The notes beneath the pieces are model-generated. The model saw only the letters and a program-made list of their open reading frames with translations. It searched no databases and had not been told where the DNA came from. DNA of 64,000 nt from Candidatus Omnitrophota bacterium (lineage in GTDB: Bacteria > Omnitrophota > Gorgyraeia > 2-01-FULL-45-10). The stretch spans positions 194,561-258,560 of the forward strand of contig JAUYOL010000043.1 of assembly GCA_030695905.1 (NCBI GenBank), in the 5' to 3' direction. The first letter of the stretch is position 1. Every line of letters begins with the position of its first letter. A program made the translations under genes and the position numbers. Positions 3,535-28,644 of the stretch are shown piece by piece.

Positions 3535-3539
3535 TATGG

Positions 3540-3965
3540 CTAACCGCTTATGTACTTGTTCAATAATGCCATCGCTTTTTCGTTGTCACTGGTCTGGAGC
3601 ACCATTCTTGAAGAGCCTTTGGTATCGCATGTGCACGGAGTTATATATGTATATTTTATATCTATGTTGTTCTCTTTCATCTCTGTGGCCACTACCTTAA
3701 ACGCGCCGGGTTTATTTTCCAGATCGACTAAAAGAACCTCTGTCTCTTTTACCATCTTATACTTCTTTTTCTTAAGCTCATTGATAATAACCAGATTTGC
3801 ATTCGTAATAAGAAAGACTTTGCCGGTGATGCCCGCTTCATAACCAAGGACGGCCTCGATATTTATACCTTTATTGGCGAGCATCATGGCGACGTCGGCC
3901 AATATACCGACCTTGTTCCTGGTCGTTATCGTTATCTCTTCACCTATCATGATGTTCTTTATCAT
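3540..3965 (-). CDS. ACT domain-containing protein (tandem ACT-like halves)
   Basis: 141 aa. The VGILADVAMMLANKGINIE pattern is typical of ACT regulatory folds. No catalytic domain. Confidence 0.55.
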   Translation of the reverse strand: MIKNIMIGEEITITTRNKVGILADVAMMLANKGINIEAVLGYEAGITGKVFLITNANLVIINELKKKKYKMVKETEVLLVDLENKPGAFKVVATEMKENNIDIKYTYITPCTCDTKGSSRMVLQTSDNEKAMALLNKYISG

Positions 3966-12044: not shown

Positions 12045-12808
12045 TCTTCCTCCACAGAACCACTCTTTACCCAGCCAAGTTTACCGTCGATACGCTTTAT
12101 CCTTCTCCAACCGTTCCGCGTTTTCAATACAAGTACCTCCTGCCCCTCCCGGAGGGTAAAATACGTCGTCGACTTATCTATCGGTTCGTATTTACATTCA
12201 ACATCCTTAACCACCACTATACCGCGCGTCAATATCTCTTCCTCGTAGTATCTGACAGAGAATCCCGCCAGCGCCAGTATAAATAATAACAGTATTGGGT
12301 AAAATATAAATGTTGCCCTTCTTTTAAACAGAGGGCTTATTATACCGCCGGCTATCAGGCCTATAACAATGAGATAAAACGCTATCAATATCCTCGCGAC
12401 CCCATTTAAGGTAAACTCCCGGAATGGTATCTTCGCCAGCCACGCGAATTTATTGGGAGTTGTGGCCTGCAAGCCGGAATCTTCGGTTAGAGATTGCGCA
12501 TATGAAAGATTTGATTTTAAGTCGCTATCGGCCGGTATAAGCCTTATGGCTTTCTTGTAATAAAGTATCGCGTATCCGGTTTTACCTGTTTTAAAATAGG
12601 CGTTGCCCATATTGTAATATAAGGGCCCACTCTCAATCCCCCCATCAGCTATCTTCTGATATTCTTCTATAGCCTTATCATATTCTCTTTTTTCATAAAA
12701 AGAATTTCCGTTATAAAAAAGACGGGTTGGATCATTTGAGGCTTCCTGCCCAAATGCCACGCCAAAAGAAGACAGAAGTATCGCAAGCGCAAGTAAATGT
12801 TTTATCAT
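12041..12808 (-). CDS. batE: BatE-like TPR/SH3b membrane protein, last gene of the Bat operon
   Basis: 255 aa. Signal peptide, TPR repeats (YYNMGNAYFKTGK), two TM segments and a C-terminal SH3b-like GWVKSGS. Overlaps batD by 4 nt. Confidence 0.6.
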   Translation of the reverse strand: MIKHLLALAILLSSFGVAFGQEASNDPTRLFYNGNSFYEKREYDKAIEEYQKIADGGIESGPLYYNMGNAYFKTGKTGYAILYYKKAIRLIPADSDLKSNLSYAQSLTEDSGLQATTPNKFAWLAKIPFREFTLNGVARILIAFYLIVIGLIAGGIISPLFKRRATFIFYPILLLFILALAGFSVRYYEEEILTRGIVVVKDVECKYEPIDKSTTYFTLREGQEVLVLKTRNGWRRIKRIDGKLGWVKSGSVEEE

Positions 12809-14691
12809 AGCTTCACCCGTTCAAAATATCTTATTATCTCTTCAAGCTCTTTCATGTCATCTTTCATTTTGAACTCATCTATATTGGAAAGCGCGAATTT
12901 CGCGCGGTCACACATTTCAAATATGCCCCGTATCTTATTTACTATCTGCGTGTCGGCATCCTTCGATTTGAGTATCGGCTCCACCGTATCAAATGTAAGG
13001 CCGGCAACCGGCAGATAAAGCTTGCCCCCCAGATAGTTTTGCATAGTTTTAAATAGTGTCTCGTAGAAACCTTTTGCGTCGTTCGATTTAAGGTGGTGCT
13101 TTAGCTTAAAAAACTCATACCTCATATTTTTAAACGCTTGAGTGCGATGAGCGTACCGCGTATCCCGTATTAACCTGTTTCTTCTCGCGTAAACAATATA
13201 AAGAGCCGTCAAAAATACCATTGGCATCGCAAATACAAGAAGAAATACGATATTATTATATATTCGGTAATCTTTTGTACGGACACGGCCGATAGATTCT
13301 TTAATATAAAGGATATCGCCCTGTGGCTCTTCTTTCCTCTCTTCCGGCATGCCGAAATTAATAGGCGTTGCCGGTGAAGGCAAGCCTTGGGGGGCGCCTA
13401 TTACCTGGGCGGGCGCATCTTTGACTTTTTCCACTACAAGCGGTACCGGACCCTGCACTATTGACTTGTATTCCTTCTTATTCGGATCGAAATAGGTAAA
13501 TACAGCTTTGGGCGTCTGATACACCTTATCCGATTCCGGTATCAGTATCTGCTTAAATGTCTTTCTGCTCGCTTCAGTCTTGGCTTGAGGCTCATAGATC
13601 CTGAAACCTTCCGTATTGTCAAGCTTGGGTATTATGACTGTGTTAAAATTCCCTATGCCATTTATCTCCATCTTCAATGTTACGGGGTCGCCGACTTTGA
13701 CCTTTTTAGGCCCTGCCTGAAATATAAACTGATAATCGCCTATAGCGCCGGAAAAATCGCTCGGCATTCCCTCTGCGGGTAAGGGCGACAGGATGACCTG
13801 AACCTCGTCCGACTTTAGTTCTACAGGGTATCGCTCATACCGGGTGAAGAATTCATCGAAGTACTGCCCCTGGGGGCCAGGTTCATTAAGGAAATCGTCG
13901 TTTAGCGCAGATGCCTGCCTTGTCCTTTTCCTGACAACGAGGTTACACTTTAACTTTGCGGGCCCTATCTTGTAATCACCGGCCCTTGTTCCGAATATGG
14001 TGGTTTTAAATTCCAATACGTCGAAAAGCATTCCGCCCATGCGTTCCCGATACTGTTTTGGTTCTTCAAATTGGGCCTTTGAAAATCCTTCCTGGCTAAA
14101 TGTGGGAAGCTGTATATCGCTTATATTAAGATTATTGCCGTAGAATTTTATAGTTACGGGGATTATCTCGTTTACATACGCTCTGGTCTTTTCAGCTTTT
14201 AGCGTCAAAAACAGCCTATCCTTTAAATCCAATGAATCTACAACGTCCTCTCCGGAACCTGCACTCTTTGCCTCCTCTTTTAAATCTTGTCTGGGCTTTT
14301 CTTCCGAGACTGTAAGAAAAGCGGAATTAGAAGTATATGTATTGCCTTCATATTTAAAACTGAACGGCCCAAATTGGAACTTTCCCATCCTGAGAGGCTG
14401 GATTTTATACATATGCGTTATCGATGAGGATACGTTGCCATTTATCACGGTCATCATCGTGGACGGGCCAAGATAACGCACATCGCACCCCTCGATATTG
14501 CCTATATCCGGAGCTGGAACATTCTGCGTGCCGTAGAATGTCAGCCCAAGCTGCGCCGTTTCACCTATAGCTACGGCCTTCTTATCTATGCTCGCTTCAA
14601 ATTTAACATCCTCGGCATAAATAAGCCCTGCGGTAACACAAGCGAGAGTAAGTATCAAAATTATTATTTTCGAATATCTCATATTTACCAA
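12805..14691 (-). CDS. batD: BatD-like oxygen-tolerance protein
   Basis: 628 aa. Signal peptide, a long beta-rich extracytoplasmic region, a C-terminal TM helix (NIVFLLVFAMPMVFLTALYIV) and a cytoplasmic tail. Position in the Bat operon. Confidence 0.7.
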   Translation of the reverse strand: MVNMRYSKIIILILTLACVTAGLIYAEDVKFEASIDKKAVAIGETAQLGLTFYGTQNVPAPDIGNIEGCDVRYLGPSTMMTVINGNVSSSITHMYKIQPLRMGKFQFGPFSFKYEGNTYTSNSAFLTVSEEKPRQDLKEEAKSAGSGEDVVDSLDLKDRLFLTLKAEKTRAYVNEIIPVTIKFYGNNLNISDIQLPTFSQEGFSKAQFEEPKQYRERMGGMLFDVLEFKTTIFGTRAGDYKIGPAKLKCNLVVRKRTRQASALNDDFLNEPGPQGQYFDEFFTRYERYPVELKSDEVQVILSPLPAEGMPSDFSGAIGDYQFIFQAGPKKVKVGDPVTLKMEINGIGNFNTVIIPKLDNTEGFRIYEPQAKTEASRKTFKQILIPESDKVYQTPKAVFTYFDPNKKEYKSIVQGPVPLVVEKVKDAPAQVIGAPQGLPSPATPINFGMPEERKEEPQGDILYIKESIGRVRTKDYRIYNNIVFLLVFAMPMVFLTALYIVYARRNRLIRDTRYAHRTQAFKNMRYEFFKLKHHLKSNDAKGFYETLFKTMQNYLGGKLYLPVAGLTFDTVEPILKSKDADTQIVNKIRGIFEMCDRAKFALSNIDEFKMKDDMKELEEIIRYFERVKL

Positions 14692-15848
14692 TTCTTGTCC
14701 GGATCAGGCAAGGGAACCTGCTTTCTTCTCATGCGTATCGACTGGCCCGTTGCTTCTTCACCCTTGTACCCCTCGAGAAGCATCTTAGCTTCCTGTTCCG
14801 TCATCTCTTTGGACTCGCCTTCTGAAGCCTGGTAAAACTGCATATTTTGACCTTCTTCACTCTGACCCTGCTGTTCTTGCTCTTTTTTCTGCTCTTCCTC
14901 TTGTTTTCTTTGCTGATCCTGTTTTTTCTGTTCTTCTTGTCGCTGTTTTTGTTCCTCTTGCTGCTCCCGCTCTTCTTGCTTACGCTGTTCTTCTTCTTTC
15001 TTTTTTTGTTCCTCCTGCTCCTTCTTCTTCTCTTCCTCTTGTTGTTGCCTCTGATCCTGCTTTTGTTTTTCCTGTTGCTGCTTATCCTGCTCACCCTTAC
15101 CTTCAGATTTTTGCTGGTCCTGTTGCTTATCTTTTTCGCTTTCAGGCTTATCTTTATCCTGCTCTTTGCCGCCACCACCCTGACTCTGATCCTGCTTATC
15201 CTTCTTATCCTGGCCCTGTTTTTGCTGTTGGGGCTCTTGCTGCTGATCTTTCTGCTTATCCTTTTGTTTATCCTGCTGCTGTTTTTGGTCCTGCTGATTC
15301 TTGTCTTGCTGATTGGGCTGTTGCTGATCCTTCTTGTCCTCCTGCTTCTTATCCTTTTGGCTCTCCTGCTTCTTCTTTAACGCCATCAGCTTCTGATCTA
15401 CAAACTCATAATTATACTTGGCATCCCTATCATTAGGATTCAAGTCTATAGAACGCTTATAAAATTCCAGCGCTGTCTCATAGGATCCTTTGGCTTTCTC
15501 CATATCCGTTTTTGCTGCCGCGCTGCCAATCTTATATTGTGCGTTACCTATATTATAATCGGTGGGCGATAATATGCCCGATTCGCCCGCAGCCAGCGCT
15601 TTATTGTATGACTCTATAGCCGCGGTATAATTTTCCTTGCTATACAGCGCATCGCCCTTGTTAAAACGCAGCATAGCGCTATCCGATTTTTTTTCCAGCG
15701 CGGCGTCATATACCTTTATCGCTTCGTCATATTTTTTGTTATTATACAATAAATTACCTTTTTTTACATCAGCGGCGGTTGAGGCAAACAACGCCTGAGC
15801 GCTCAAAAAGAACGATAAAATTGTCAGAAAAACTACTCTACGCGTCAC
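14685..15848 (-). CDS. batC: BatC-like TPR protein with a long K/Q/E/D-rich low-complexity C-terminal region
   Basis: 387 aa. Signal peptide, TPR repeats (LYNNKKYDEAIKVYDAAL...) and a roughly 230-aa charged low-complexity tract. Confidence 0.65.
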   Translation of the reverse strand: MTRRVVFLTILSFFLSAQALFASTAADVKKGNLLYNNKKYDEAIKVYDAALEKKSDSAMLRFNKGDALYSKENYTAAIESYNKALAAGESGILSPTDYNIGNAQYKIGSAAAKTDMEKAKGSYETALEFYKRSIDLNPNDRDAKYNYEFVDQKLMALKKKQESQKDKKQEDKKDQQQPNQQDKNQQDQKQQQDKQKDKQKDQQQEPQQQKQGQDKKDKQDQSQGGGGKEQDKDKPESEKDKQQDQQKSEGKGEQDKQQQEKQKQDQRQQQEEEKKKEQEEQKKKEEEQRKQEEREQQEEQKQRQEEQKKQDQQRKQEEEQKKEQEQQGQSEEGQNMQFYQASEGESKEMTEQEAKMLLEGYKGEEATGQSIRMRRKQVPLPDPDKNW

Positions 15849-15850
15849 AG

Positions 15851-16852
15851 CTACCTTCTCCTCTCAGAAAAAAGCGACTCTATCAACAGGAGAGCTATCG
15901 CGAGGGCCAGAAATATCTGATATCTTTCCTTGTAGTGCTTCTTCATCTTCGTGTCCAGTTCCTGCTTTTCCAATTTAGAGATTACTTTATCATACAGTAA
16001 TATGAGCCCAAAATCGCTTTGTGTGGCATGAACATAGCTTCCGCCCGTAGCGACGGCTATTCTCTTTAACAGCTCTTCGTTTAATCTCGTCTTAACGGCC
16101 TGGCCGCGCTTATCGGCAAGGTATGCTCTCTCTCCGCGCTCATCTATGGTAGGAATAAGCTCTCCTTCCGGGGTTCCGACGCCGATGCAGTATATTCTTA
16201 TACCTGCCTGAGCGGCTTCGTTTGCTACGCTTATAGCATCGCCCTCGAGTTCTTCACCGTCGGTAATCAGCACCAGCACTTTAAATTTCTTCTCGGGCCC
16301 CTTAAACGCGTTCATCGCTTCTTTGATAGCGCCGGATACGGATGTTCCGGGCCTCGGTATCGTATCTGTATTCATATCGTCAAGCGCCAGAAGAAAACCA
16401 TTATAATCTATAGTCAAAGGGCATTGTAGAAACGCGGTTCCCGCAAATGCCACCAACCCCACCCTGTCTCCATTTAATTTTTTAACAAGATCCTTTATCG
16501 CAAGCTTCGATCTTTCGAGCCTATTGGGCCTGACATCGCGGGCAAGCATACTTTTCGAAACATCAACGGCTATCAGCATATCGAGGCCGATCCTTTTTAT
16601 CTCCTGCCACTCGAAGCCCCACTGCGGGCGGGCAAGTGAGAATATACACAAAAGAAGCGCGCTCGCTATCAGGACTATCTTCCAAATTTTGCGGGCAATA
16701 CTTACTGTGGGCGTTATCCCGCCCAACATATTCTTATCGGCGAATTTTTCCATCAGGCTCTCGCGCCGCCTCATCACCAGTATATAGAATATGATTATCA
16801 GGACCGCGGAAGAGATGAATATTGATATATATTTTATGTCGCCGTAATGCAT
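15851..16852 (-). CDS. batB: BatB-like vWA domain membrane protein
   Basis: 333 aa. N-terminal TMs, then a vWA MIDAS motif (LIAVDVSKSM). Bat operon context. Confidence 0.75.
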   Translation of the reverse strand: MHYGDIKYISIFISSAVLIIIFYILVMRRRESLMEKFADKNMLGGITPTVSIARKIWKIVLIASALLLCIFSLARPQWGFEWQEIKRIGLDMLIAVDVSKSMLARDVRPNRLERSKLAIKDLVKKLNGDRVGLVAFAGTAFLQCPLTIDYNGFLLALDDMNTDTIPRPGTSVSGAIKEAMNAFKGPEKKFKVLVLITDGEELEGDAISVANEAAQAGIRIYCIGVGTPEGELIPTIDERGERAYLADKRGQAVKTRLNEELLKRIAVATGGSYVHATQSDFGLILLYDKVISKLEKQELDTKMKKHYKERYQIFLALAIALLLIESLFSERRR

Positions 16853-16854
16853 AT

Positions 16855-17853
16855 TTAGGGCACCTTCAAAAATATTGTATTCGACAAAAATATCTCCAAT
16901 GCCAACAATATCAGCCCGGGAATAAGAAATATCGGGAATAGCTCTGTATATTCCCTGTATCCTAAATGCTCGATATTGGATTTTTCGAGCCTGTTTATTT
17001 CGTCATAAATACGCCTGAGCTTCTCGGAGTCCGATGCCAGGAAGTACTTGCCGCCGGTAAGGTCGGCTATCTTCTTCATCGACTCCTCGTCTATCTCTAT
17101 GGGTATGTTCCTGTAAACGGTCCTGCCGTAAAAATCTTTTAATGGATACGGTGAAAGGCCTTTGGTCCCTACAGCTATCGTGTATATCTTTATCTTCAAC
17201 GCCCTTGCCGCTTCCGCCGCAACAATAGGCGAAATATTTCCCGCGTTATTTACGCCGTCAGTAAGAAGTATTACGACCTTGCTCTTCGTCTTACTCGTCC
17301 TTAAGCGGTTTATCGAGCTCGCTATGGCCGAACCTATAGCGGTGGCGTCCTCTATCATGCCTATTCGCACCCTGTCCAGATTTTCCAATAACCAGCCGTA
17401 ATCCGACGTAAGCGGGCAAACTGTGTAGGCGCGAGCCGCAAACGCTACGAGGCCTATCCTGTCATCCTTCCTTTTCGCTATAAAGTCCTTTACTACTTCT
17501 CTTACAAGATCGTATCTATTTACCCTCTTGGAGCCGAGCATAAAATCTTCGGCTAACATACTGGTAGAAGTGTCGAGGGTCAGGACTATATCGACTCCTT
17601 CCGAAACCGTCTTTGAGCCTTCCAGCATAGCCTGCGGCCTTGCCAACGCTATTATCATCAATGCCAATGCGACTATCTTAAGAACTATCAGGGATTTCCC
17701 TAACCGCACGCGAGCGGTCTGCTTCAAATCCTTCAGGAGCTCTTCAGAAGAAAATACAAAGCTTGAGCCCGAACGCCTTCGCCTCTCGATGAATAATATA
17801 AGAGGCAGTAACAATAAAAGCCAAAAAACGGCCGGGTCTTTAAACAGGAACAT
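16855..17853 (-). CDS. batA: BatA-like vWA domain membrane protein
   Basis: 332 aa. TM segments, vWA MIDAS (VLTLDTSTSM) and a C-terminal TM. Confidence 0.75.
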   Translation of the reverse strand: MFLFKDPAVFWLLLLLPLILFIERRRRSGSSFVFSSEELLKDLKQTARVRLGKSLIVLKIVALALMIIALARPQAMLEGSKTVSEGVDIVLTLDTSTSMLAEDFMLGSKRVNRYDLVREVVKDFIAKRKDDRIGLVAFAARAYTVCPLTSDYGWLLENLDRVRIGMIEDATAIGSAIASSINRLRTSKTKSKVVILLTDGVNNAGNISPIVAAEAARALKIKIYTIAVGTKGLSPYPLKDFYGRTVYRNIPIEIDEESMKKIADLTGGKYFLASDSEKLRRIYDEINRLEKSNIEHLGYREYTELFPIFLIPGLILLALEIFLSNTIFLKVP

Positions 17854-18757
17854 ACTCTCCTTTCGTCTCCTCTATAAACTTTTTCGCTGTGGTGAATACC
17901 GACCCTATCTCGTCTTTTGAGGGCGCATGCTTGGCAAACTTCACCAGATCGCATGCCTCCATAAAAGTTTTTAGCAATTCCCTATATCCTGTCGATATCT
18001 TCAATGAATCACCCAGGCTCGCTAAAAACTCCTGTGTCGTCATCTCCGGAGCTCTTAATTTAAAGACTGTCTCTATATAGCGCCGGACTGCGTCGGAGAC
18101 GGTTACGTAATAATCCTTAACATTGCCTGTCTTCGCGAATTCCGCCTTAGCCGATTCCAGCGCGTCTATAGCGGCCTCGTAAGGAAGTTTTGGCGGCGGG
18201 CTTTTCTTGAATTTTTTGAATAATTTTATTATCAGCCATAATACAAGCAATGCCGCCGCTATCCATAAGGCAAGTTTAAGAAAACTGAATGGATATATCG
18301 GCCCCTTGATATCCTTTACATCATAGAGGGCGACGTTTCTTGGCAGAACGCTTTCGACTGTAAACTCAAATTCCGGGGTTTTTAGAGTCCTCCAGTTGCC
18401 CTCTCCCTTCTCGCGGTACTTTATCTCTATCCCGGGGATCTTCCGCTTGCCCACATAGTAACCGGTTATATCGAGCCAGTTTACATAATGATGACTGCCA
18501 AACAAGGACCTCTTAATCTCTTTCCCTGAATCTTTTATCTCGCACTCACCGATCTTGCTATCCTTAAACTTAGGAAATTCTATCTCAAGATCGAGTTTCG
18601 AAAATATTTCGGCCTTATAATGTATCCTATCGCCTATAAGGATCCTCTTCCTGTTGATAGTTGTCTTTATAGAAGATGTGTCTTCATCGGCTGCCAGCGC
18701 GATATTTGATATAAGCAGAACACCGGTAATGAATATCATTCTATTGAAAAACTTCAC
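17840..18757 (-). CDS. DUF4381-like membrane protein with an extra N-terminal periplasmic domain
   Basis: 305 aa. Signal peptide, a roughly 140-aa beta-rich region, a TM (LALWIAAALLVLWLIIKLF), then a cytoplasmic helical domain with ...QEFLASLGD...CDLVKFAKHAPSKDE. Conserved position between DUF58 and batA. Confidence 0.5.
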   Translation of the reverse strand: MKFFNRMIFITGVLLISNIALAADEDTSSIKTTINRKRILIGDRIHYKAEIFSKLDLEIEFPKFKDSKIGECEIKDSGKEIKRSLFGSHHYVNWLDITGYYVGKRKIPGIEIKYREKGEGNWRTLKTPEFEFTVESVLPRNVALYDVKDIKGPIYPFSFLKLALWIAAALLVLWLIIKLFKKFKKSPPPKLPYEAAIDALESAKAEFAKTGNVKDYYVTVSDAVRRYIETVFKLRAPEMTTQEFLASLGDSLKISTGYRELLKTFMEACDLVKFAKHAPSKDEIGSVFTTAKKFIEETKGEYVPV

Positions 18758-19632
18758 TACATGCGCCTCTTTCTCATCCGGAAAAATTTTATAAATTCTT
18801 CTATGTATGATTTATCGGTACTTATATCTATGTGGTCCACTCCGACGGATCCGAATAATCTCGTCCTCTCACTTTGCATCTGGCTCGCTTTTTTCGCGTA
18901 TTTTTCTCTGACTTTAGCGCTTGAGGTATCGATCACATAGGGTCTTCCGCTTTCGGCGTCTGCGAGTTCGATTATGCCCGCGTCCGGCAGATGGCCTTCC
19001 CTGGGATCGGTTATGGTAATGGCGACGACATCATGTTTTTTGTTAGCTATGGAGAGAGGTTTTTTGAAATCATCCGCGAAGAAATCCGAGATTACAAATG
19101 TGACGGCCCTGCGCCTTATAACATTATCCAAGTAGCGCAGCGCCCCGGCAAGATCGGTCCCTTTGCCTTTAGGGGTAAAATACAAAGCTTCCCTTACCAC
19201 CCTTAGAACGTGATGAAGGCCTTTTCTGGGCGGGACAAACTTCTCAATCCTGTCCGTAAATATTATCAAGCCCACGCGGTCGTTATTCTGTATGGCGGCA
19301 AATGCCAGGACCGCCGATACTTCAGCGGCGAGTTCTTTCTTGAATCTTTTGGTAGTTCCGAAGCTTGAGGAGCTTGAGGCGTCGAGCAGGATCATTACGG
19401 TAAGCTGACGCTCTTCGACGTACTTCTTTACAAAAGGTGAACCGATGCGCGCCGTAACGTTCCAGTCTATGGAGCGTATCTCATCGCCGGGCTGGTATTC
19501 CCTTACCTCGTCAAACTCCATGCCACGGCCTTTGAATACGCTTTCATACTGGCCGGCGAGAAAGTCCGTGACCAGCCTCGAGGTCGTTATTTCAATGCGC
19601 CGTATTTTGCGTAATACTTCCTTCGGCAGCAT
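18757..19632 (-). CDS. DUF58 domain protein (MoxR-partner, vWA-like)
   Basis: 291 aa. Contains GQYESVFKGRGMEFDEVREYQPGDEIRSIDWNVTAR, the hallmark DUF58 motif. Confidence 0.8.
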   Translation of the reverse strand: MLPKEVLRKIRRIEITTSRLVTDFLAGQYESVFKGRGMEFDEVREYQPGDEIRSIDWNVTARIGSPFVKKYVEERQLTVMILLDASSSSSFGTTKRFKKELAAEVSAVLAFAAIQNNDRVGLIIFTDRIEKFVPPRKGLHHVLRVVREALYFTPKGKGTDLAGALRYLDNVIRRRAVTFVISDFFADDFKKPLSIANKKHDVVAITITDPREGHLPDAGIIELADAESGRPYVIDTSSAKVREKYAKKASQMQSERTRLFGSVGVDHIDISTDKSYIEEFIKFFRMRKRRM

Positions 19633-19633
19633 C

Positions 19634-20629
19634 TTACGGTACTTTTACTTCCTCAAAAATCTTTTTTATAATATCTTCGGAGTTCTTGTCTTCCGCCTCC
19701 GCCTCATAGCTTGCGATTATGCGGTGCCTTAATACGTCCATGCCGATAGTCTTTATATCCTGCGGAACAACATAACCGCGTCCCTGTAAAAACGCGTAAG
19801 CCTTTGCGGCCATCGATAGGTATATGCTTGCGCGGGGGGACGCGCCATACTGGATAAGCCCAACCAGCTCTTTAAGCCTGTATGCGTTAGGATCTCTGGT
19901 GGCGAATACTATGTCGATAATATATTTCTCGATTCTTTCGTCTATATAAATTTCATCGACCACTTTACGCGCTTTTATTATCTCGTCCGGAGTAACCACC
20001 GCTGCCACAGTGAGTTTTTTATCCGTAACCGCCATACGCTTCATTATCTTGTGCTCTTCTTCCTTGTTCGGGTACTCTATCTTTAATTTCAACATGAAGC
20101 GGTCCACCTGGGCTTCAGGCAGCGGATATGTGCCTTCGTGTTCTATTGGGTTCTGCGTCGCCAGAACAAGAAACGGCTCATCGAGTTTATAAGTATTTTC
20201 GCCTATAGTCACCTGTCTTTCCTGCATGGCTTCGAGTAAAGCGCTCTGTACTTTCGCGGGGGCCCTGTTTATTTCATCGGCTAAAATTATATTGGCAAAT
20301 ATGGGGCCTTTCTTGGTCGTAAATAAACCGTCCTTCGGACTGTATATAAGAGTTCCTATTAGATCCGCAGGTAAAAGATCGGGTGTAAACTGTATTCTCT
20401 GAAATTTGGTCTTTATTGCCTGGGCAAGCACCTTGACCGACAATGTCTTGGCAAGTCCCGGTACTCCTTCTATCAGAATGTGGCCGTTTGCCAGAAGGCC
20501 CACGAGCAGCCTCTCCAATAAATATCTTTGGCCTACTATCACCTTCTCCATTTCGGCAAGAAGTTTATTTACAAAATCGCTCTCTTTCTTTACCTTCTCA
20601 TTTATCGCTTCTACTGACGTCCCCACCAT
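19634..20629 (-). CDS. moxR: MoxR-family AAA+ ATPase
   Basis: 331 aa. Walker A (EGVPGLAKT) and Walker B (ILADEINRA). MoxR architecture. First gene of the Bat operon. Confidence 0.9.
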   Translation of the reverse strand: MVGTSVEAINEKVKKESDFVNKLLAEMEKVIVGQRYLLERLLVGLLANGHILIEGVPGLAKTLSVKVLAQAIKTKFQRIQFTPDLLPADLIGTLIYSPKDGLFTTKKGPIFANIILADEINRAPAKVQSALLEAMQERQVTIGENTYKLDEPFLVLATQNPIEHEGTYPLPEAQVDRFMLKLKIEYPNKEEEHKIMKRMAVTDKKLTVAAVVTPDEIIKARKVVDEIYIDERIEKYIIDIVFATRDPNAYRLKELVGLIQYGASPRASIYLSMAAKAYAFLQGRGYVVPQDIKTIGMDVLRHRIIASYEAEAEDKNSEDIIKKIFEEVKVP

Positions 20630-20640
20630 ATTTTCCTCCT

Positions 20641-21063
20641 CTATTGAATATTCTCTAACTCTCTATTCAGGTCTTTTAACTGCAGATTCATGAACTTCAA
20701 CAAAACTACTTTGTCCAGATATTCGAGACTAAGAGGCTTGGTTATATAATCGTTTGCGCCTAATTCCATGGCCTTCTTCATCACATCATCGTCCTTAACG
20801 CCTGTAACCATAATAATGACGACATCCTTATCAATCTCTCTTATCTTCTCAAGTGTTTCGATGCCGTCCATGCCCCTCATGTTTATATCCAGCAGGATAA
20901 TCCGGGGCTTTTCCTTTGCCACGATCTTCAGGGCCTCTTTGCCGTTTAACGCGTTGAATACCTCATAATTACGCGCGGTAAAGAACTCATAAAAAAATGA
21001 GTCGATACCCATCTGGTCATCGACAGTCAATATTTTACAAATCGGCTTTTTGGTTTCCTTCAT
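20641..21063 (-). CDS. single-domain response regulator (CheY-like receiver)
   Basis: 140 aa. Acidic pocket DD, phospho-acceptor Asp in ILLDINM, conserved T in MVTG and K in YITKP. No output domain. Confidence 0.85.
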   Translation of the reverse strand: MKETKKPICKILTVDDQMGIDSFFYEFFTARNYEVFNALNGKEALKIVAKEKPRIILLDINMRGMDGIETLEKIREIDKDVVIIMVTGVKDDDVMKKAMELGANDYITKPLSLEYLDKVVLLKFMNLQLKDLNRELENIQ

Positions 21064-21090
21064 AATGGTATGATTATACCATAAGAAAGA

Positions 21091-24000
21091 TTATGCTGCA
21101 GTAAGTAGTTCGAGCAAGCGCTTATTTAGTTTAGGTATGTCGTTGACAGGCGCTGAAGCGGCTTTGGGCAGGTCAAAGATAAGTCTGCGGGCAAATTCTT
21201 TCGGATCATCCGATATTGCATCGGGCGGATTGTCAAATGGCTTGCCTGCCATGACGGAGTATATTCTCAAAAGTGCGGGCAGGCCGTTATCTGAATGCAA
21301 TGCTCTCAAAGCCGCCACAATGCCTTCCAATTGTATAAAGTCTTCTCCTTTAAATATAAGCATCTTTATATCTTTGTCTTCGGGAACCAATGCGAGATGT
21401 TCCTCGATAGAGAGGGCTATATCAACCATTGCGTTTGTATTTTCGGCGCGAATCTTTTTTATTGCTTCACTAATGGATGTTCCGCTCTCCAATATCCATA
21501 CTTTTTCAGACACATTCTTATTATCTCTAAAAGCCTTATTAACGCGCGTAATAAAACTGCCTTGCTGCTGCTCCAGCGGTATTACACCCTGTTCTATGAT
21601 GTGCCATAATACTTTATTTTCGGAAATAGCAGGCTGTATCTGCATGTTTATTTCATGCAAAATTGCCGCCCTAACCAACGCCCTGGAGATCTTTGCCTCA
21701 CGCTTTGCCAATTCGCAAGTAACAACATTTAATAATGTCCTCGTATAATCTACATCCTCGCCGATCATCATATCGGTAAACCTGTAATAATCAGGCTTAT
21801 TTTCAATCGGTTCAAGCACTCCAAGCGCAACGAGTCTTTTGGCTTCGGATTTATCGAGCGGGATGCCGCCATTTCTATTTAGCGCCGCTTTCATTAATTT
21901 GTCGTTATCTCTTATCGCTTTCATTACTTTTATCGACCAGCCTCTAACACGATTATAGACTTCACCCGATTCGCCTTCGCTCATTCTGCCCATGCTGACC
22001 AATAGTTTCAAAAGATATCTACCCTTGGCAGAACGCTGCAGTTTACGCCGAGCGCTGTCTAACAACTGCTGAATCCGCCTGCAGCTCACCTTGTATTTTC
22101 TACTCAATTCTTCTTGCGTGCTTGGCTCATTGCCAAAAAGTCCATAATACCCAATAGTCACTTCGCGCTGTCTATCAGTAAGGATTGACATCGCTGACTT
22201 TACAGCATCTCTCATTACAGATTCCTCTTCAGCAGCGGATGAAGGCTCTTCCGATGCCTCCACTTCCATTAAATTCATATCTTTTCTATTTAGGGGCATT
22301 TCTGTCACACGCCTATCACGGATTTCTGCCACATCAAGATAGTGGCCTAACGCGAGGCTGGAACTTCTTATTTCTTCTAAATCTGAGAATTTGTTGTTCA
22401 AAGTCCACACAAAACCCGGATAGCGTTTCTCTATATACTGCCTGAAGGTGAATATGCCGTCTTTTGTTAACAATTCCTTTTCTTCCATATATATTCCATA
22501 AAGATACTGCAACCTTTTTACTATACGCGCCTCGGTCCAGAATGGCTTGCCTCGACTATAATGAGTCGTATCCCAATTTTCTTCAGTGGCCTCCCCAGTA
22601 TCAACCGGAGCCTCCCCGTATCCAACATCAGCAACTCTTGTCAGCACCTCTTCCGCTTTGGCCCGCTCTATATCACTAAGATCGCTCCCATCCGGTTTCC
22701 CGGGCGTAAGACCACCTAAAAATTCATCAAGCTCATTGGGTCTATCTTGTAACAATTCGAATGCCGCAAACAGATCCAGCGCTTCCATTGCTTTTGATTT
22801 CGCTTCTTTGTATCTGCCATCATTGAATGCTCTAACCGCTTCACTTATCAAATCATTTACATATCCACCCGTCCATCCGTAAAGACTGTTCCTTTCTATG
22901 GGTCTTCCCACCAGCGAACCTTCGCCGCGAAGAGCAACTTCGCGTATTTCGGGAGAATCATCTTCTACCCCGAGTTCTCTCAATTTCTCACATATTAATC
23001 GCGGCGTTGCGTTTATATGATCTATATCCCAAAACCCCTTTCGTACGGTCGGGATCCAATGCTTTGCCGCTGAAATCACAACAGCTGGCACTCCTCGTAA
23101 CAGGGCCAAATGAAAAATAGCTGTATCAATAGTGACAACCCCTTCTGCCTGAGAAACAAAATCCAGCACTTTTCCCCTGTCCTTGAATTTTTTTACAATT
23201 AATTTCGGTGAGCCATGGATCCTACTTCTCACGGCATTTTCTATTTTTTGTGTTTCCCGCGCTTCATAAGAACTGGTACCGCTATTAAGCGCGACAACAA
23301 AACCTTTATCGATTAACTCCAGGATGGCCCCCACCCAGAGCTTCCTAAGCTGCCCGGATAGCTCTGCGTTAGTCCAGGAATGAGGATTAACAAAGATAAG
23401 GCCTTTCTGGTAATCTTGCCTGGGATAAACGATATTTACATCAGCTGAATTTAGACCAGCCAGGGATATATTATTTCTGGTAACCGAATAAATATCGCGC
23501 CTGTCCGGCTTATTAGATAACAATATCTGGCTAAATCCGAAAATAGACAATCGACTCACTGCTTTGAATTTTAAATTTTTCCCAAAATCAATAAAAACAT
23601 CGAATCTCTTATTTTTTAGAAACTGCTCTGATTCTTCATGAGATACATACCTGACCCTTGGGTCCATATTTTTAATTAATTCCGGCGCATAGGTAATAAC
23701 GGATATTTCTTCTACATCCGGCCAGGTATTTAGTATCGACGCTATGGTTAAAGGCAGCGAAACAATAGCCGAACCCCACGGTGAAAAATATTCATGCACT
23801 ATGGCAACGGATCTGACGCTTTTTATACCAGAAATAAGTTCTTTACATTGCGAGTAACTGTTAAACCCATCTAAATCTAAGGTTGTCGTCTTAACATTTT
23901 CATTGATAGTCTGTTCCTTTGGCGAATCCTTAACCGGCGGTGCGATACTCGGATTCGATTCGAGATGTCTGCGCGCGACATCCTGCACTTCCCCTGTCGT

Positions 24001-27000
24001 AGCATGGGCTTTTAATCTTGAAAGTTCTTCAGAAATTTCTGCTATTTGTGCACCATCCATATTATCAGCAGCATGATAATTATCGCCTTCTTGAACAATA
24101 AGACCGGCGCTGACAAGCTTACTTAAATCTTTTCGTGCCGTTGATACGGCGATTTGTCTCTTTCCGCCATTAGTTTCTATCATGACATCACCGCACAATC
24201 TATCGAACGGCACCCATCCTCTTTGGTAGTTATTTGTAAGCAGATCGAAGAACGTTGCGACATGTTCTGGAGCATGCGATGGCTTTACTGCTTCTTTAGC
24301 AGCCATCATTGCCCCCACAGCCTTCTTCAAGTTGATAAATTCACAACCCTTCGGCCCGACATGAATACTGAGTCCATATTTAAGCAAATCTTCTGCTCTT
24401 ATTATCCGCTTTTCAACAGGAATCCACTCTAAACCTTGTTCATCAAGTCTAAAACCTTCTTTTACATAATATGTGTTTCCCATATCAGCAGGTTCAACCT
24501 GTGAGTTAACTATCCTTTTCATATCAAATGTCGTCCACCCGTCCTCGAACGTAACATTAAGCGCGCCGATCACCATATCGTTGTCTCCGAAGCGCGCAAG
24601 TCCTATGGCATGCTCGGGCCTGTCTGTTTCAAGATAGTGATATGCTCCGTCGCTGAAGTTCGCATATAAAGCAGGGAGTGAGAATAGTTTTTTTCGGACA
24701 TCCCTTTTAGCAGGATCCGCATCCTCCATACGTGGGACGGGCGATGACTTCTCCTGAGCATTTCGATACTTGTGCTGGCTTCCATATATCTCTCCATTAA
24801 ATATTAAATTGAACCCAGGCATAAATGTATACATAAAATACAGCAGATTTCTATCCTGATAACTTAACATGGACCATGGGTCGCCGAAATCAAAGGCATC
24901 GTGTTCGGGCCCAAGATAGATAAAATTATCACGTATATCGGCAGGCATTGTCTCCGTGCTGCGCAAATACGAAATTAGTGCCTGGAGCCTGGAGGGGTCC
25001 AGTGGATCCATCAGGGCCTCTGTAGCATAATTCCTGCATTCCCATCCATAGAACGAAGCATCTCTTCCTTTTGCAACCGCCAGGAGATCTCTATATCTTT
25101 CAAATCCTTCAAACATAAAGAAAGCATAAGGATTTGTTTTACGGACTGCTTCAACAAATTGGGAAGAAAGATTATTGCTGACTTCTATATGCCAGTTATC
25201 TTTTATCCTGTCCGGGAACGTTGCAAGCGCGGTACCTACCCGCATTCCGTCCACACCTTTGCTAAGCCAAAACCTTCCTGTCTCTATCGCATCCCTGACA
25301 ACATCCGGATGCGAAAGATCCGGCTGGGCCAATGAACACCACCTACGGGGATAATCTGTTTTGAGGCTTACGAGGTCGGTCGCAGAAACTAAAAAAAGCG
25401 CTGACTCATCAGGGATGATTATGGCTGGGGCAACATAGCTCGCCCCCATCAGACCTTTTCGTATCTCATCGTCAGGCCGACGGTATGGTATTTCCCTGCC
25501 GTCCACATTTATCATTCCCTCGTGCTTCAATTCACGTGGGTCCATGTTTTTTAATTTGGCTGAAATCTTTTCACCTAATTCTATTTTTCGGCGAAGTTCA
25601 TTTGGCTGTATCGTTTGCCCGCGGAACAGCTTCGGATCCCTATCCAGCCCATAATTTCCATCACTGACATTGGTGTATAAATATCTTTCTGGATAGGACT
25701 TGCATAAAGGGCTGGACTTGGCGACATGCTGATTCGCTATCCAATCAACAATCACCATAAGCCCGACACTGTGCGCTTTTTTAATAAAATCTTCCAATTC
25801 TTTAAAAGAACCTGCCCGTTTATCTATATTTTTAGGATCGATAATTTCAAAAGGGCTGCCTGTATTTTCAATAAGCCCCAGCAGATACATGTATTTAACG
25901 CCAGAGTCCGCCAGGAATGATAATTCCTTGACTGCGGATTTCAAACCGGACATGCCTGTTGTTACATCATAATAGTCGCGAAGCACCATTTCATATATGG
26001 TCTTTGTATTTCTTTTCTTTCTTATTGCGGGCAGGTAGACGTCATGCGCATATCGCCTCTCCATCGCAACTGCGGTAACAAGCTCATTGGCCCTTAAATA
26101 TGAATTTCGCATCAGATGCTTCCACTTGCTTTTGCCCTCTTCATAAAAAAGCCTTGAAGATATCTCACACTTCGCAAATATATCCGCAGGGGCTTCGTGA
26201 TAAAATTTTTCGTTATCTGCCGCAAAACCGTCATCTGTTTCTTTTGTATAAGAACCAATAAAGAAACCGCTTCCCCCACCTGTCGTCTCATCGTAATCAA
26301 CTATCCATTCGACCGGGCCAGCGCCTTTAATGGCTATATTCACTCCGCCGTTTTCACCCGCACGTCCATCGGAAGTACCCGCAGCTTCTTCGAGAGGCCG
26401 GGGATTGGTTATACATAGATCGCAACCTATTGCCTGCATCTTAAGAAGCTTCGCGTCAGAGTTGGGCACATAGACAAATCTCCCATTGAATTCCGGTATA
26501 TCATTTGCCCAGTGCCGAAATTCCTGAACCCAGAATGGCATATATTCAGGACCGCCTACAACTAATTGCATGCCCAATCCATATACTTTTTTACGCCGGC
26601 CATTATCAAATATCTTGCTAAGATTGGATTCCACGATCCCTTTATTGTAGGATTGCGCTAAATCCGGTATGTCTCGGAACCACAGCGTTTTCAATTCGTC
26701 CATTGTGAAAGATTTATCTTTATCCGCGGTGAGAATATGGACCAAAAATCTTAGCATGGGATACTGACTTTTATAATCCACCAGTCTTCTCACTTCCCAC
26801 CCGGTAAGTTTATTTGGATCGAGCTTAACACCGGTCCTAATCTCGATCTCTGCAAAGGCTTCTTTTTTGCCATTTTCATGGATCTGCCACAGGTCTTCCT
26901 CACTGGGAACACCCTTCTTATCTTCAAATGCTTTCAGCTCGTCTGACTTCCATGTTTCGCCCGAACCATTCAGGACACCTACCACCGGCTTATCAAATTC

Positions 27001-28587
27001 GCTTCCGTACAGGTTCCTGAATAGCCTTTCGGTTGCTTTTGCATGCTCGTTGCTGACCGCATTTATAACATCGGCTAACTTCATCGCAGCATAACAGAAG
27101 TCAACAACGCCATTCGGCCTCAAAAATGCCGATCTTAGCTGAGCTGCTTTCTTTTTGGGCAGACCTATTACATACATCATCCGGTCCGCATTACTCTTGA
27201 CCGAAGCGGGCGAAAATGTCTCAAGGCCCGCCGGAACCAGCGTATGATTGGTATATACAATGGCGGTATTATTATATGATTCGTCTGCCCTCATCTGCGC
27301 CGCTGCTACAACTGTATGAGCTTCGTTAAGATGCAATATATCCGGTTTGATATGCATTTTTTTCATAAATGCATACACCGCCTTGCCGAATACTATCTCC
27401 TGGGTGAACCGGTGGGCCCTGTCATCTGGATACAATTCATCAAAAACCTTTGACATGAAAATGTAATCTGTTGCACCGCCCCTGCTTAACTTGTATACTT
27501 CTACCATAACTTTTGGATTATAGCGGTCCTCTTCGTCCTCTGTCCTGGCTTCAGGGTCTTCATCCCACGCACGGACCATGATTGCATCACCATTCACAGA
27601 AACCTTTTCCAGTATCCCTCTTTTTATCAGCTCCTCATAACTTACTTTTACCTTTTTACCATCCTTCCTTAGATGAGAGTAGCCTATCTGCGCGCCGAGA
27701 GCATTTATGCCTATTGCGGCCATGCCTTCGAGCTTGTCCCCGAAATATGCGCCAAGCCCGCCCTTAGTATTAGCATTCTGCGCTTCGTATCCTGCAAATT
27801 CCGGGATATTACCTTCCAGAGAAAGGGATAACACCGTCTTACCTTTTAACTCCGGAATATTTTGCGCTATCCAATTTTCTGTAAATTTACCTCCATTGCT
27901 CGCCGCAATATTAATATCATTATCATCTCTGTCTAATCCGTGTTCACTGTATAGTACATAGATATTGTCCAGATCTATAGAGCCTTTTACACTCTCGTAT
28001 ATCTTTTTGACTCGGGGGGTCGCTTCCCTGTCAACTTGGGCCGCAAACTTTCTCGCTTCGTCATGAGTGGCAGGATCTAAAATCCACCCCCTCATCTCGG
28101 CATATGTCTTCCCAAGCTCGAGGCGCTTGCTTTCCCATCTTGTTATTTTGTTCTTTTCATGGTTTCTTAGGGTGGCATTATTAAAATATCTTTTATCTAT
28201 ATAAATAATGGGCACGCCTGCCTGACGGCCCAATCCTATATGGGCGAGCTGGCCCGTATCTTTTGCCAAATTCTTAATAGCGACTAAAATGATTTTTTGA
28301 GTTTTATCAAGAACTCTTATGGTCTCGGCATCATCAACATCTTCCGGCTGGACCAATTTAAGCTGTGGGATTCCACCGGGCGGAAGCTTGGACTTGATAT
28401 TATTATTGAGGGCAGCATGGGATAGTTTTGTATATCCTGCTATATACTCGTCAGAGAATTGCTTCTGAGTTATTCGAAGCTGTGGGGCGAGTGCGAATGC
28501 TATATCATTACAAAAAAATAGACATACTATTGCCATTGTGATTACTCTTAGCAGCAATATATGCCTTACTTTGTATTGGATTAACAT
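21091..28587 (-). CDS. giant 2498-aa multidomain protein: N-terminal signal/anchor, GT35 alpha-glucan-phosphorylase-like, GH13 alpha-amylase-family-like, GT9 heptosyltransferase-like and sigma-70 region-4-like HTH modules
   Basis: One uninterrupted 7497-nt ORF. Ordered by-eye motif matches: KGGLGAYFGDKLEGMAAIG, HLNEAHT, YTNHTLVPAGLE and EEAAGTSDGRAGENGG (GT35); GVKYMYLLGL...AHSVGLMVIVDWIANQH, GVDGMRVGTA and GPEHD (GH13 regions I, II, IV); VVTIDTAIFHLALLRGVPAVVIS (GT9 C-terminal motif); LTDRQREVTIGYYGLFGNEPSTQEELSRKYKVSCRRIQQLLDSARRKLQ (sigma-70 region 4). Confidence 0.85.
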   Translation of the reverse strand: MLIQYKVRHILLLRVITMAIVCLFFCNDIAFALAPQLRITQKQFSDEYIAGYTKLSHAALNNNIKSKLPPGGIPQLKLVQPEDVDDAETIRVLDKTQKIILVAIKNLAKDTGQLAHIGLGRQAGVPIIYIDKRYFNNATLRNHEKNKITRWESKRLELGKTYAEMRGWILDPATHDEARKFAAQVDREATPRVKKIYESVKGSIDLDNIYVLYSEHGLDRDDNDINIAASNGGKFTENWIAQNIPELKGKTVLSLSLEGNIPEFAGYEAQNANTKGGLGAYFGDKLEGMAAIGINALGAQIGYSHLRKDGKKVKVSYEELIKRGILEKVSVNGDAIMVRAWDEDPEARTEDEEDRYNPKVMVEVYKLSRGGATDYIFMSKVFDELYPDDRAHRFTQEIVFGKAVYAFMKKMHIKPDILHLNEAHTVVAAAQMRADESYNNTAIVYTNHTLVPAGLETFSPASVKSNADRMMYVIGLPKKKAAQLRSAFLRPNGVVDFCYAAMKLADVINAVSNEHAKATERLFRNLYGSEFDKPVVGVLNGSGETWKSDELKAFEDKKGVPSEEDLWQIHENGKKEAFAEIEIRTGVKLDPNKLTGWEVRRLVDYKSQYPMLRFLVHILTADKDKSFTMDELKTLWFRDIPDLAQSYNKGIVESNLSKIFDNGRRKKVYGLGMQLVVGGPEYMPFWVQEFRHWANDIPEFNGRFVYVPNSDAKLLKMQAIGCDLCITNPRPLEEAAGTSDGRAGENGGVNIAIKGAGPVEWIVDYDETTGGGSGFFIGSYTKETDDGFAADNEKFYHEAPADIFAKCEISSRLFYEEGKSKWKHLMRNSYLRANELVTAVAMERRYAHDVYLPAIRKKRNTKTIYEMVLRDYYDVTTGMSGLKSAVKELSFLADSGVKYMYLLGLIENTGSPFEIIDPKNIDKRAGSFKELEDFIKKAHSVGLMVIVDWIANQHVAKSSPLCKSYPERYLYTNVSDGNYGLDRDPKLFRGQTIQPNELRRKIELGEKISAKLKNMDPRELKHEGMINVDGREIPYRRPDDEIRKGLMGASYVAPAIIIPDESALFLVSATDLVSLKTDYPRRWCSLAQPDLSHPDVVRDAIETGRFWLSKGVDGMRVGTALATFPDRIKDNWHIEVSNNLSSQFVEAVRKTNPYAFFMFEGFERYRDLLAVAKGRDASFYGWECRNYATEALMDPLDPSRLQALISYLRSTETMPADIRDNFIYLGPEHDAFDFGDPWSMLSYQDRNLLYFMYTFMPGFNLIFNGEIYGSQHKYRNAQEKSSPVPRMEDADPAKRDVRKKLFSLPALYANFSDGAYHYLETDRPEHAIGLARFGDNDMVIGALNVTFEDGWTTFDMKRIVNSQVEPADMGNTYYVKEGFRLDEQGLEWIPVEKRIIRAEDLLKYGLSIHVGPKGCEFINLKKAVGAMMAAKEAVKPSHAPEHVATFFDLLTNNYQRGWVPFDRLCGDVMIETNGGKRQIAVSTARKDLSKLVSAGLIVQEGDNYHAADNMDGAQIAEISEELSRLKAHATTGEVQDVARRHLESNPSIAPPVKDSPKEQTINENVKTTTLDLDGFNSYSQCKELISGIKSVRSVAIVHEYFSPWGSAIVSLPLTIASILNTWPDVEEISVITYAPELIKNMDPRVRYVSHEESEQFLKNKRFDVFIDFGKNLKFKAVSRLSIFGFSQILLSNKPDRRDIYSVTRNNISLAGLNSADVNIVYPRQDYQKGLIFVNPHSWTNAELSGQLRKLWVGAILELIDKGFVVALNSGTSSYEARETQKIENAVRSRIHGSPKLIVKKFKDRGKVLDFVSQAEGVVTIDTAIFHLALLRGVPAVVISAAKHWIPTVRKGFWDIDHINATPRLICEKLRELGVEDDSPEIREVALRGEGSLVGRPIERNSLYGWTGGYVNDLISEAVRAFNDGRYKEAKSKAMEALDLFAAFELLQDRPNELDEFLGGLTPGKPDGSDLSDIERAKAEEVLTRVADVGYGEAPVDTGEATEENWDTTHYSRGKPFWTEARIVKRLQYLYGIYMEEKELLTKDGIFTFRQYIEKRYPGFVWTLNNKFSDLEEIRSSSLALGHYLDVAEIRDRRVTEMPLNRKDMNLMEVEASEEPSSAAEEESVMRDAVKSAMSILTDRQREVTIGYYGLFGNEPSTQEELSRKYKVSCRRIQQLLDSARRKLQRSAKGRYLLKLLVSMGRMSEGESGEVYNRVRGWSIKVMKAIRDNDKLMKAALNRNGGIPLDKSEAKRLVALGVLEPIENKPDYYRFTDMMIGEDVDYTRTLLNVVTCELAKREAKISRALVRAAILHEINMQIQPAISENKVLWHIIEQGVIPLEQQQGSFITRVNKAFRDNKNVSEKVWILESGTSISEAIKKIRAENTNAMVDIALSIEEHLALVPEDKDIKMLIFKGEDFIQLEGIVAALRALHSDNGLPALLRIYSVMAGKPFDNPPDAISDDPKEFARRLIFDLPKAASAPVNDIPKLNKRLLELLTAA

Positions 28588-28644
28588 ATTTTACTTAAAT
28601 ATACCACTAAATCATAATAATACAAGGAAAGATAACCAAGTATT

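Follow-up and report, generated by a model that had tools for sequence, protein, structure and literature searches.

A sigma-70 region 4 domain within the variable cargo of a signal-peptide-bearing long protein of Candidatus Omnitrophota

Region 4 of a sigma factor normally occurs once, at the end of the protein, where it reads the −35 element and offers a landing pad for activators and anti-sigma factors. Why, then, should a copy of it lie near the C-terminus of a 2498-residue protein that otherwise looks like a carbohydrate enzyme? The question is raised by a stretch of 64,000 nucleotides from a Candidatus Omnitrophota bacterium (positions 194,561 to 258,560 of contig JAUYOL010000043.1, GenBank assembly GCA_030695905.1), referred to here as the window. 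A first-pass annotation of this DNA had picked out the sigma-like peptide and proposed that it might bind −35-like DNA, make anti-sigma-like contacts or couple a metabolic protein to transcription, and it had found the receiver-domain gene next to it suggestive. Is the domain a genuine region 4, how did it come to be in this protein, and where would it act?

The minus-strand translation of positions 22002-22215 is exactly the peptide quoted in that annotation. When the whole protein was scanned, Pfam family PF04545 (Sigma70_r4) matched amino acids (aa) 2132-2184 over profile positions 1-49 of 50 with 29.1 bits (E = 7e-7; curated Pfam cut-off 24.1 bits), and a 115-aa excerpt scored 34.8 bits (E = 1.2e-8). 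PF08281, the region 4 family of extracytoplasmic function (ECF) type (r4_2), was not reported by the Pfam scan of the giant open reading frame (ORF). A phmmer search of all PDB sequences returned 69 matches, every one of them (69/69) a sigma factor. The top match was region 4 of T. maritima sigma-A (PDB 1TTY; E = 5e-7, aa 2123-2199), in an alignment that takes in the RpoD-type C-terminal tail ('RKLQRSAKGRYLLKLL' vs 'RKLRHPSRSKYLKSLL'). AlphaFold2, given an alignment of region 4 relatives as input, modelled four to five helices with a predicted local distance difference test score (pLDDT) of 88-98 at aa 2120-2179 and 83 at aa 2180-2189. Foldseek comparison of this model with the PDB yielded primary sigma chains for all of the top 50 matches (prob 1.00), and isolated region 4 structures superposed at 1.4-2.2 Å; the shortness of the domain kept E-values modest (1.5e-3 at best). 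Profile, PDB matches and predicted structure all bear out the first-pass identification of the peptide as region 4 with its recognition helix. We conclude that aa 2123-2199 form a true, still-folded sigma-70 region 4 of RpoD (group 1/2) type which, at the level of the domain family, is an ordinary member of PF04545.

Like region 4 of group 1/2 sigma factors (1TTY; E. coli sigma-70 ~541-613), the domain has region 4.1, the helix-turn-helix (HTH) of region 4.2, a tail of the form 'RKLRHPSRS..L..L' and the modelled fold. Unlike a sigma factor, the protein lacks regions 1.2-3, carries region 4 embedded at about residue 2150 of an enzyme-like chain with a signal peptide, and continues for some 300 residues beyond it. 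The absence of regions 2 and 3, also reported in the first pass, holds across the giant ORF: Pfam gave neither PF04542 (region 2) nor PF04539 (region 3) at E ≤ 1, and the full-length NCBIfam sigma models (RpoD, RpoS, RpoH and others) aligned only over their last ~85 positions (aa 2103-2198), every score being far under the model's own cut-off. The parts of the protein, and the gene that follows it, are these:

21091..28587, minus strand: giant ORF, 2498 aa, with no interruption over 7.5 kb.
28486..28587, minus strand: aa 1-34, signal-peptide-like segment of Sec type, from a hydropathy scan and a pattern kept in the family.
27883..28485, minus strand: aa 35-235, module A, the conserved head; no Pfam match, internal recurrence in paralogues.
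25948..27882 (approximate limits), minus strand: alpha-glucan phosphorylase/starch-synthase-like domain (PF08323, E = 9e-12).
24328..25947 (approximate limits), minus strand: alpha-amylase-like domain of glycoside hydrolase family 13 (GH13; PF00128, E = 5e-10).
21943..23892, minus strand: aa 1566-2215, variable cargo block, without a blastp counterpart in the syntenic orthologue P0002.
22306..22554, minus strand: aa 2012-2094, helical domain preceding region 4 (pre-r4 domain), 'FWTEARIVKRLQYLYGIY...', pLDDT 55-78.
22222..22305, minus strand: aa 2095-2122, acidic linker, net charge −7.
21991..22221, minus strand: aa 2123-2199, sigma-70 region 4 (4.1, HTH 4.2, RpoD-type tail), with the Pfam core at 22036-22194.
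21094..21942, minus strand: aa 2216-2498, conserved family tail; it opens with a winged-helix-like element, continues as an alpha/beta domain and closes with an amphipathic helix whose last residues are ...LLELLTAA.
20641..21063, minus strand: gene for a stand-alone receiver domain of 140 aa, separated from the giant ORF by 27 nt on its downstream side.

The giant protein is identical to the NCBI entry 'MAG: glycogen/starch synthase [Candidatus Omnitrophota bacterium]' (MAG, metagenome-assembled genome), whose start makes it 17 aa shorter. Four Pfam families were found in it: Glyco_transf_5 (aa 360-517), Alpha-amylase (aa 1086-1322), a weak Phosphorylase and Sigma70_r4. The TIGR02094 model scored 120.9 bits, under its cut-off of 191.7. 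In the unannotated part, Glyco_transf_9 (PF01075) gave a sub-threshold match at aa ~1757-1834, and the cargo block accordingly comprises a weak region resembling glycosyltransferase family 9 (GT9), a helical region, the pre-r4 domain and region 4. The pre-r4 domain was considered as a possible sigma region 3, an idea prompted by a few phmmer matches and some of the long alignments from Foldseek. This is unsupported, as the PDB sequence search covers region 4 only, and hhalign of the cassette (pre-r4 domain, linker and region 4) against a profile of RpoD-like C-termini (99.5% probability, E = 1e-22) is restricted to aa 2103-2195; that profile was derived from matches to the same query and is not independent evidence. 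No further copies of region 4, head or tail were found within the rest of the 64-kb window. A second winged-helix-like element ('...AVSTARKDLSKLVSAGLIVQEGDNYH', aa ~1440-1510, 24058-24270, minus strand) lies between the amylase-like domain and the variable block, with weak HTH_DeoR and HTH_20 matches (E 0.04-0.2; HTH_DeoR at aa ~1478-1498, under threshold); a clearer HTH occupies the equivalent position in the paralogue P0003.

What kind of region the domain occupies is indicated by comparison with the closest homologue, P0002, whose locus (L007) is syntenic with the window (trmD-rplS-rnhB-[giant]-moxR-DUF58-...-batA-batB). By blastp, aa 1-1565 of the giant protein are 68% identical to P0002 and the tail (aa 2216-2498) 37% identical, while aa 1566-2215 are unmatched. 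Since region 4 sits in a block without a counterpart in P0002, it belongs to variable cargo and not to a conserved part of the enzyme. The domain is better regarded as a lineage-specific accessory than as regulatory machinery central to the enzyme. The tail resembles those of paralogues (57-61% identity) more than that of P0002, which suggests recombination among family members.

An exhaustive HMMER scan with aa 2020-2215 against 1.84 billion representative proteins (E ≤ 1e-3) gave 460 matches, and the single-domain ones inspected were RpoD-like C-terminal region 4. The only protein found to share the whole pre-r4 and region 4 cassette is P0058 (GAF85200.1), a partial sequence from a marine sediment metagenome on a contig of just 1.3 kb, with no genomic context. 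Its cassette is 34% identical over 174 aa, and the two proteins agree in their variant recognition helix, S-x-R-R-[IV]-x-Q-[IL]-L. Unlike the giant protein, P0058 has neither head nor tail of the family, and its cassette follows two or three membrane helices in place of carbohydrate enzymes. A cassette of ~190 aa (helical pre-domain, acidic linker and region 4) has thus arrived by domain shuffling in the variable cargo region. The next-best scores in the scan belong to uncharacterised proteins of 589-1,722 aa (P0050-P0057) with 3-11 tandem sigma-region-4-like HTH repeats. Like the giant protein, they hold the HTH outside its one-per-sigma-factor setting and have the same 'YYGL.G....TQ.EL' signature; unlike it, they consist of tandem arrays, come from low-GC genomes and have no enzyme domains, and some contain region 2. 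One of them, P0050 (L016, 425-4798), lies in a Bacillota-type locus with ylbD, ylbE and ylbF homologues and a second region 4-containing gene adjoining. In a word-index homologue search, the region 4 peptide alone gave no match, and a C-terminal 399-aa query retrieved tail fragments only.

The host protein belongs to a family of its own. The related proteins, from Omnitrophota and 1,700-4,300 aa long, have the first ~600-1,500 residues in common and then diverge into different enzyme domains, among them phosphofructokinase, phosphoglucomutase, GNAT, ROK, transaldolase, debranching enzyme and receiver. Homologues over ~45% identity are labelled Omnitrophota or unlabelled, and weaker matches include Planctomycetes and Deltaproteobacteria. 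Module A (~200 aa) follows the pattern 'QLAHIGLGR..G.P.IYID..YFNN....HE...I..WE...DINIAA'. At the other end, the ~280-aa tail module '...IPKLN.RLL.LLTAA' closes many Omnitrophota mosaic proteins regardless of their cargo, with HAD, aldo-keto reductase, methyltransferase, carbamoyltransferase, ROK or phosphorylase-like domains before it. Tail identity is 36-61% to P0002, P0003 and P0047-49 and, over best segments, 31-58% to the tail-carrying loci L001-L006 and L008-L015. The tail was modelled by AlphaFold with a pLDDT of 80-90, and it yielded no Pfam family and no significant PDB fold match. Taken together, the family consists of Omnitrophota-specific mosaic long proteins with a signal peptide, a conserved head that includes a glycogen-phosphorylase/synthase-like domain, interchangeable cargo and a ~280-aa tail ending in LLTAA. 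Bacterial ssrA-type degradation tags end in -LAA, a resemblance to the -LTAA end of the tail on which we can only speculate. Module A also recurs inside paralogues (P0003, aa ~3430-3640; an ORF of L002, aa ~640-800), an arrangement suggestive of head-to-tail fusion of entire family members. Some cargos contain HExxH/HExxxH motifs ('AHELDH' in L002, 'IHELVH' in L004, 'HEFISH' in P0037), hints of possible protease-like modules.

In outline, this host family is already known. Omnitrophota long proteins have been described in which the PF08323 starch-synthase-like domain is the commonest sugar-metabolism domain and is found alongside GT1, phosphoglucomutase, receiver and ROK domains; for the majority of these proteins, secretion or membrane attachment is predicted (10.1101/2023.11.21.568195; 10.64898/2026.06.07.730766). 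The giant protein has both the PF08323/alpha-glucan-phosphorylase-like head and the Omnitrophota origin. It resembles the 'Archaeovorins' (10.1101/2023.11.21.568195) and the 'Module 2' long proteins (10.64898/2026.06.07.730766) in phylum, PF08323-type head, mosaic of enzyme and regulatory cargo, and signal peptide; it differs from them in being just 2.5 kaa (thousand amino acids) long and in having no internal membrane helices. The passages of the two papers that were read make no mention of the LLTAA tail, and term searches for 'sigma' and 'Sigma70' gave no occurrence in either of them. Our literature search found no other relevant paper. New here are a defined family architecture, in which variable cargo lies between the conserved head and the LLTAA tail; the cargo that holds region 4 as its only sigma piece; the complementary region 2 cargo of a paralogue lineage (see below); and the portable cassette of pre-domain and region 4, which an unrelated membrane protein has as well.

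The paralogue lineage is that of P0003 and L001 (Omnitrophica RIFCSPHIGHO2_02_FULL_46_20) and of L008, in which Sigma70_r2 lies directly upstream of the same tail, together with a vestigial 4.2 helix. This corresponds to a member of ~1,020 aa (L001, 7775-10840, plus strand; L008; P0003, aa 3430-4322) whose region 2 is FliA/WhiG-like (27.8 bits). The order in the L001-type member is signal peptide, module A, three ~95-aa repeats ('YKNFEEALEVFKAG..SWDRATIEIRKEF...'), region 2, vestigial 4.2 and tail; in essence this is a sigma-like protein bearing a signal peptide. P0003/L001 share with the giant protein the family head and tail and the position of the sigma fragment just before the tail; they differ in having region 2 and a vestigial 4.2, whereas in the giant protein region 2 is missing and region 4, RpoD-like, is complete. 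Sigma pieces are therefore a recurrent but occasional cargo of the family. The possibility that the tail is a sigma-specific partner was rejected, as sigma pieces occur in only the L001/P0003 lineage and the giant ORF among ~12 distinct tail-bearing loci.

What might a lone region 4 do? Region 2 provides the main contact with core RNA polymerase and opens the promoter. Having no region 2, the giant protein cannot work as a sigma factor, and promoter-specific initiation by it is unlikely. The domain is strongly basic (net charge +9, pI 10.3), as is that of 1TTY (likewise +9). Its recognition helix reads SCRRIQQLL vs TRERIRQIE in group 1/2 sigma factors. At the positions of the −35 base contacts of E. 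coli sigma-70 (R584, E585, R586, R588 and Q589), the alignment has C, R, R, Q and Q, two of the five being identical; any DNA specificity would therefore probably differ from TTGACA. We suggest that region 4 may serve here as a self-contained, basic HTH docking module through which the megaprotein, or a part of it, would be tethered to a protein or a polyanion, most probably DNA.

Such docking would most likely take place outside the producer's cytoplasm, because the protein begins with a Sec-type signal peptide and is otherwise free of membrane helices. The N-terminus has an n-region with K/R, a hydrophobic core (VITMAIVCLFFC) and then NDIAFA/LAP (the slash marks the putative cleavage site). 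More than 20 family members keep this pattern, with a K/R-rich segment, a hydrophobic core of 12-20 residues and an AxA-like site, and among diverged Omnitrophota members these sites read FALA/P, AWA/S and SWA/D. The pattern is not present in the 1,540-aa homologues from outside the Omnitrophota. The signal peptide was called from a hydropathy scan and the conserved pattern, and the hydropathy scan revealed no membrane helices beyond the N-terminal segment in the giant ORF, which together predict an extracytoplasmic location. Other exported proteins of the window have signal peptides of the same style. Two adjacent paralogues of ~700 aa each (43332-45497 and 45497-47557, minus strand) have near-identical signal peptides ('...FVQGSYSAADD' and '...FAQGSYSAMDD'). 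For the proposed transcriptional role, the first-pass annotation had itself named an extracytoplasmic prediction as the finding that would speak against it; the signal peptide and the lack of any other helix point to exactly that location. The topology prediction thus argues against the most attractive interpretation of a domain call that is itself solid and mildly surprising.

The explanation that we favour, tentatively and at somewhat short of an even chance, is that region 4 is an autonomous HTH docking module with DNA as its likeliest ligand, carried as accessory cargo and probably extracytoplasmic; its role and location we infer from the features above. Several points weigh against it. 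The signal peptide has been called from sequence features alone, and the AlphaFold2 model is biased towards the region 4 fold by its input alignment. The cargo of the family (kinases, methyltransferases, nucleotide-sugar transferases, sigma and winged-helix domains) is of cytoplasmic type and needs ATP, S-adenosylmethionine (SAM) or DNA; it fits export poorly, so the topology prediction may be wrong. The same puzzle of export and cytoplasmic cargo is remarked on in the published studies of Omnitrophota long proteins (10.1101/2023.11.21.568195; 10.64898/2026.06.07.730766). In P0058, the cassette follows its membrane helices in an orientation that, by positive-inside reasoning, would put it in the cytoplasm. 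Finally, the exact architecture of the giant ORF is known from one genome, on a single MAG contig.

Some of these points would suit a protein that works in the cytoplasm. The N-terminal segment would then be a mere anchor, or a C-terminal fragment of region 4 and tail would be made separately or released, and region 4 would dock on the beta-flap, an anti-sigma-like partner or −35-like DNA, linking glycogen metabolism, and perhaps the receiver, to transcription. We consider both this topology and the docking that it implies unlikely, though not negligibly so. All parts of region 4 are there (4.1, 4.2 and tail) and are modelled with confidence, a winged-helix-like element follows in the tail, and the P0058 homologue of the cassette is predicted to be cytoplasmic and membrane-tethered. 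The same interpretation has to contend with the Sec-type signal peptide common to the family and the absence of any other membrane helix, and with the change at three of the five −35 contact positions. Internal promoter-like sites, from which a separate fragment might be made, were not above chance.

The receiver gene bears on the same question. That the downstream gene encodes a stand-alone receiver, as the first-pass annotation had it, is certain enough (Response_reg, 95.7 bits). Its adjacency to region 4, which the annotation had thought suggestive, did not survive comparison with the syntenic orthologue: locus L007 has neither the region 4 block nor the receiver gene, and there the giant gene adjoins moxR directly. 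This counts against a cytoplasmic link between region 4, receiver and transcription. Receiver domains are frequent as fused cargo in the host family (P0038 is an example), a point in favour of such a link, and they are listed among the cargo of Module 2 long proteins (10.64898/2026.06.07.730766). It is plausible that receiver domains and the host family are loosely linked in function, and nothing connects this link with region 4. Region 4 looks like an interchangeable accessory module rather than an established link between metabolism and transcription.

Alternatively, region 4 could be an evolutionary relic, the remnant of a once-complete fused sigma factor or a random capture, linker-like and with no binding of its own. 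We rate this as doubtful, on a par with cytoplasmic coupling. The different sigma pieces in different members would be expected of decay (region 2 and a vestigial 4.2 in P0003/L001, region 4 only in the giant ORF), as would the closest orthologue without region 4 and the three diverged −35 contact positions already described. Against decay, the hydrophobic core and all helices are intact, with very high pLDDT, and the basic surface is kept. The 34% identity of the whole cassette to that of the unrelated P0058 argues for selection on the unit.

A far less probable idea is that the megaprotein is an effector exported into prey or host cells, where region 4 (region 2 in the paralogues) would engage the victim's RNA polymerase or promoters; the enzyme domains would, with as little likelihood, exploit the victim's glycogen and sugar phosphates. 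It would account for a signal peptide on cargo that needs cytoplasmic cofactors, and Omnitrophota have been proposed to be predators or parasites, with their long proteins read as extracellular effectors (10.1101/2023.11.21.568195; 10.64898/2026.06.07.730766). There is no sign of a delivery system linked to the gene, whose neighbours are housekeeping genes and a bat/moxR operon; no precedent for the mechanism is known and the idea is entirely inferential. It is a long shot, too, that sigma fragments in general are functional cargo of exported effectors, acting on RNA polymerase or promoter DNA of prey or host or, after proteolytic release, of the producer. If true, this would be a cellular counterpart of the appropriation of sigma by phages, physically coupled to glycogen-mobilising enzymes. 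We give almost no credence to an artefact, whether the HTH match arose by chance or a sigma fragment was joined to an enzyme gene by faulty assembly or annotation: the exact architecture does come from a single MAG contig, but several independent sigma-specific matches are significant and the domain is internal and in frame within an uninterrupted 7.5-kb ORF, with family-typical modules on both sides, the tail included.

A complete, well-folded region 4 detached from region 2 within a signal-peptide-bearing megaprotein shows that the domain can be reused as a free-standing module. With it, regulatory-type domains join the puzzling repertoire of Omnitrophota long proteins; where these proteins are located and what they are for is still under debate. 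Binding of RNA polymerase or DNA by region 4 would offer a concrete handle on the site of action, be it the producer's cytoplasm, its surface or a victim cell; an inert region 4 would instead be a record of free domain shuffling in the host family.

Scans for promoters and terminators in the 3' part of the giant gene, in the gap between the giant and receiver genes and at the giant start gave counts near those of shuffled sequence, the exception being two plus-strand terminator-like matches in the start region. Two sites that resemble an extended −10 element by eye, and are not listed by the consensus scan, were noticed on the minus strand: 'TGGTATAAT', 9 nt upstream of the receiver ATG (gap 21064-21090), and 'TGGTATATT', 12 nt upstream of the ATG of the giant gene (28588-28625). 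Both would give very short leaders with no obvious Shine-Dalgarno sequence. Beyond the receiver gene lies a complete aerotolerance-type operon (12041-20629, minus strand) with the order moxR-DUF58-(unknown)-batA-batB-TPR (batC-like)-batD-TPR/SH3; the 14-kb orthologue contig L007 has the same moxR to batB genes after its giant gene, as far as the contig reaches. A canonical GlgA glycogen synthase of 462 aa is encoded 7 kb from the giant gene (35736-37124, minus strand; PF08323, 288 bits, and Glycos_transf_1), so that the genome has an ordinary cytoplasmic enzyme besides the signal-peptide-bearing megaprotein.

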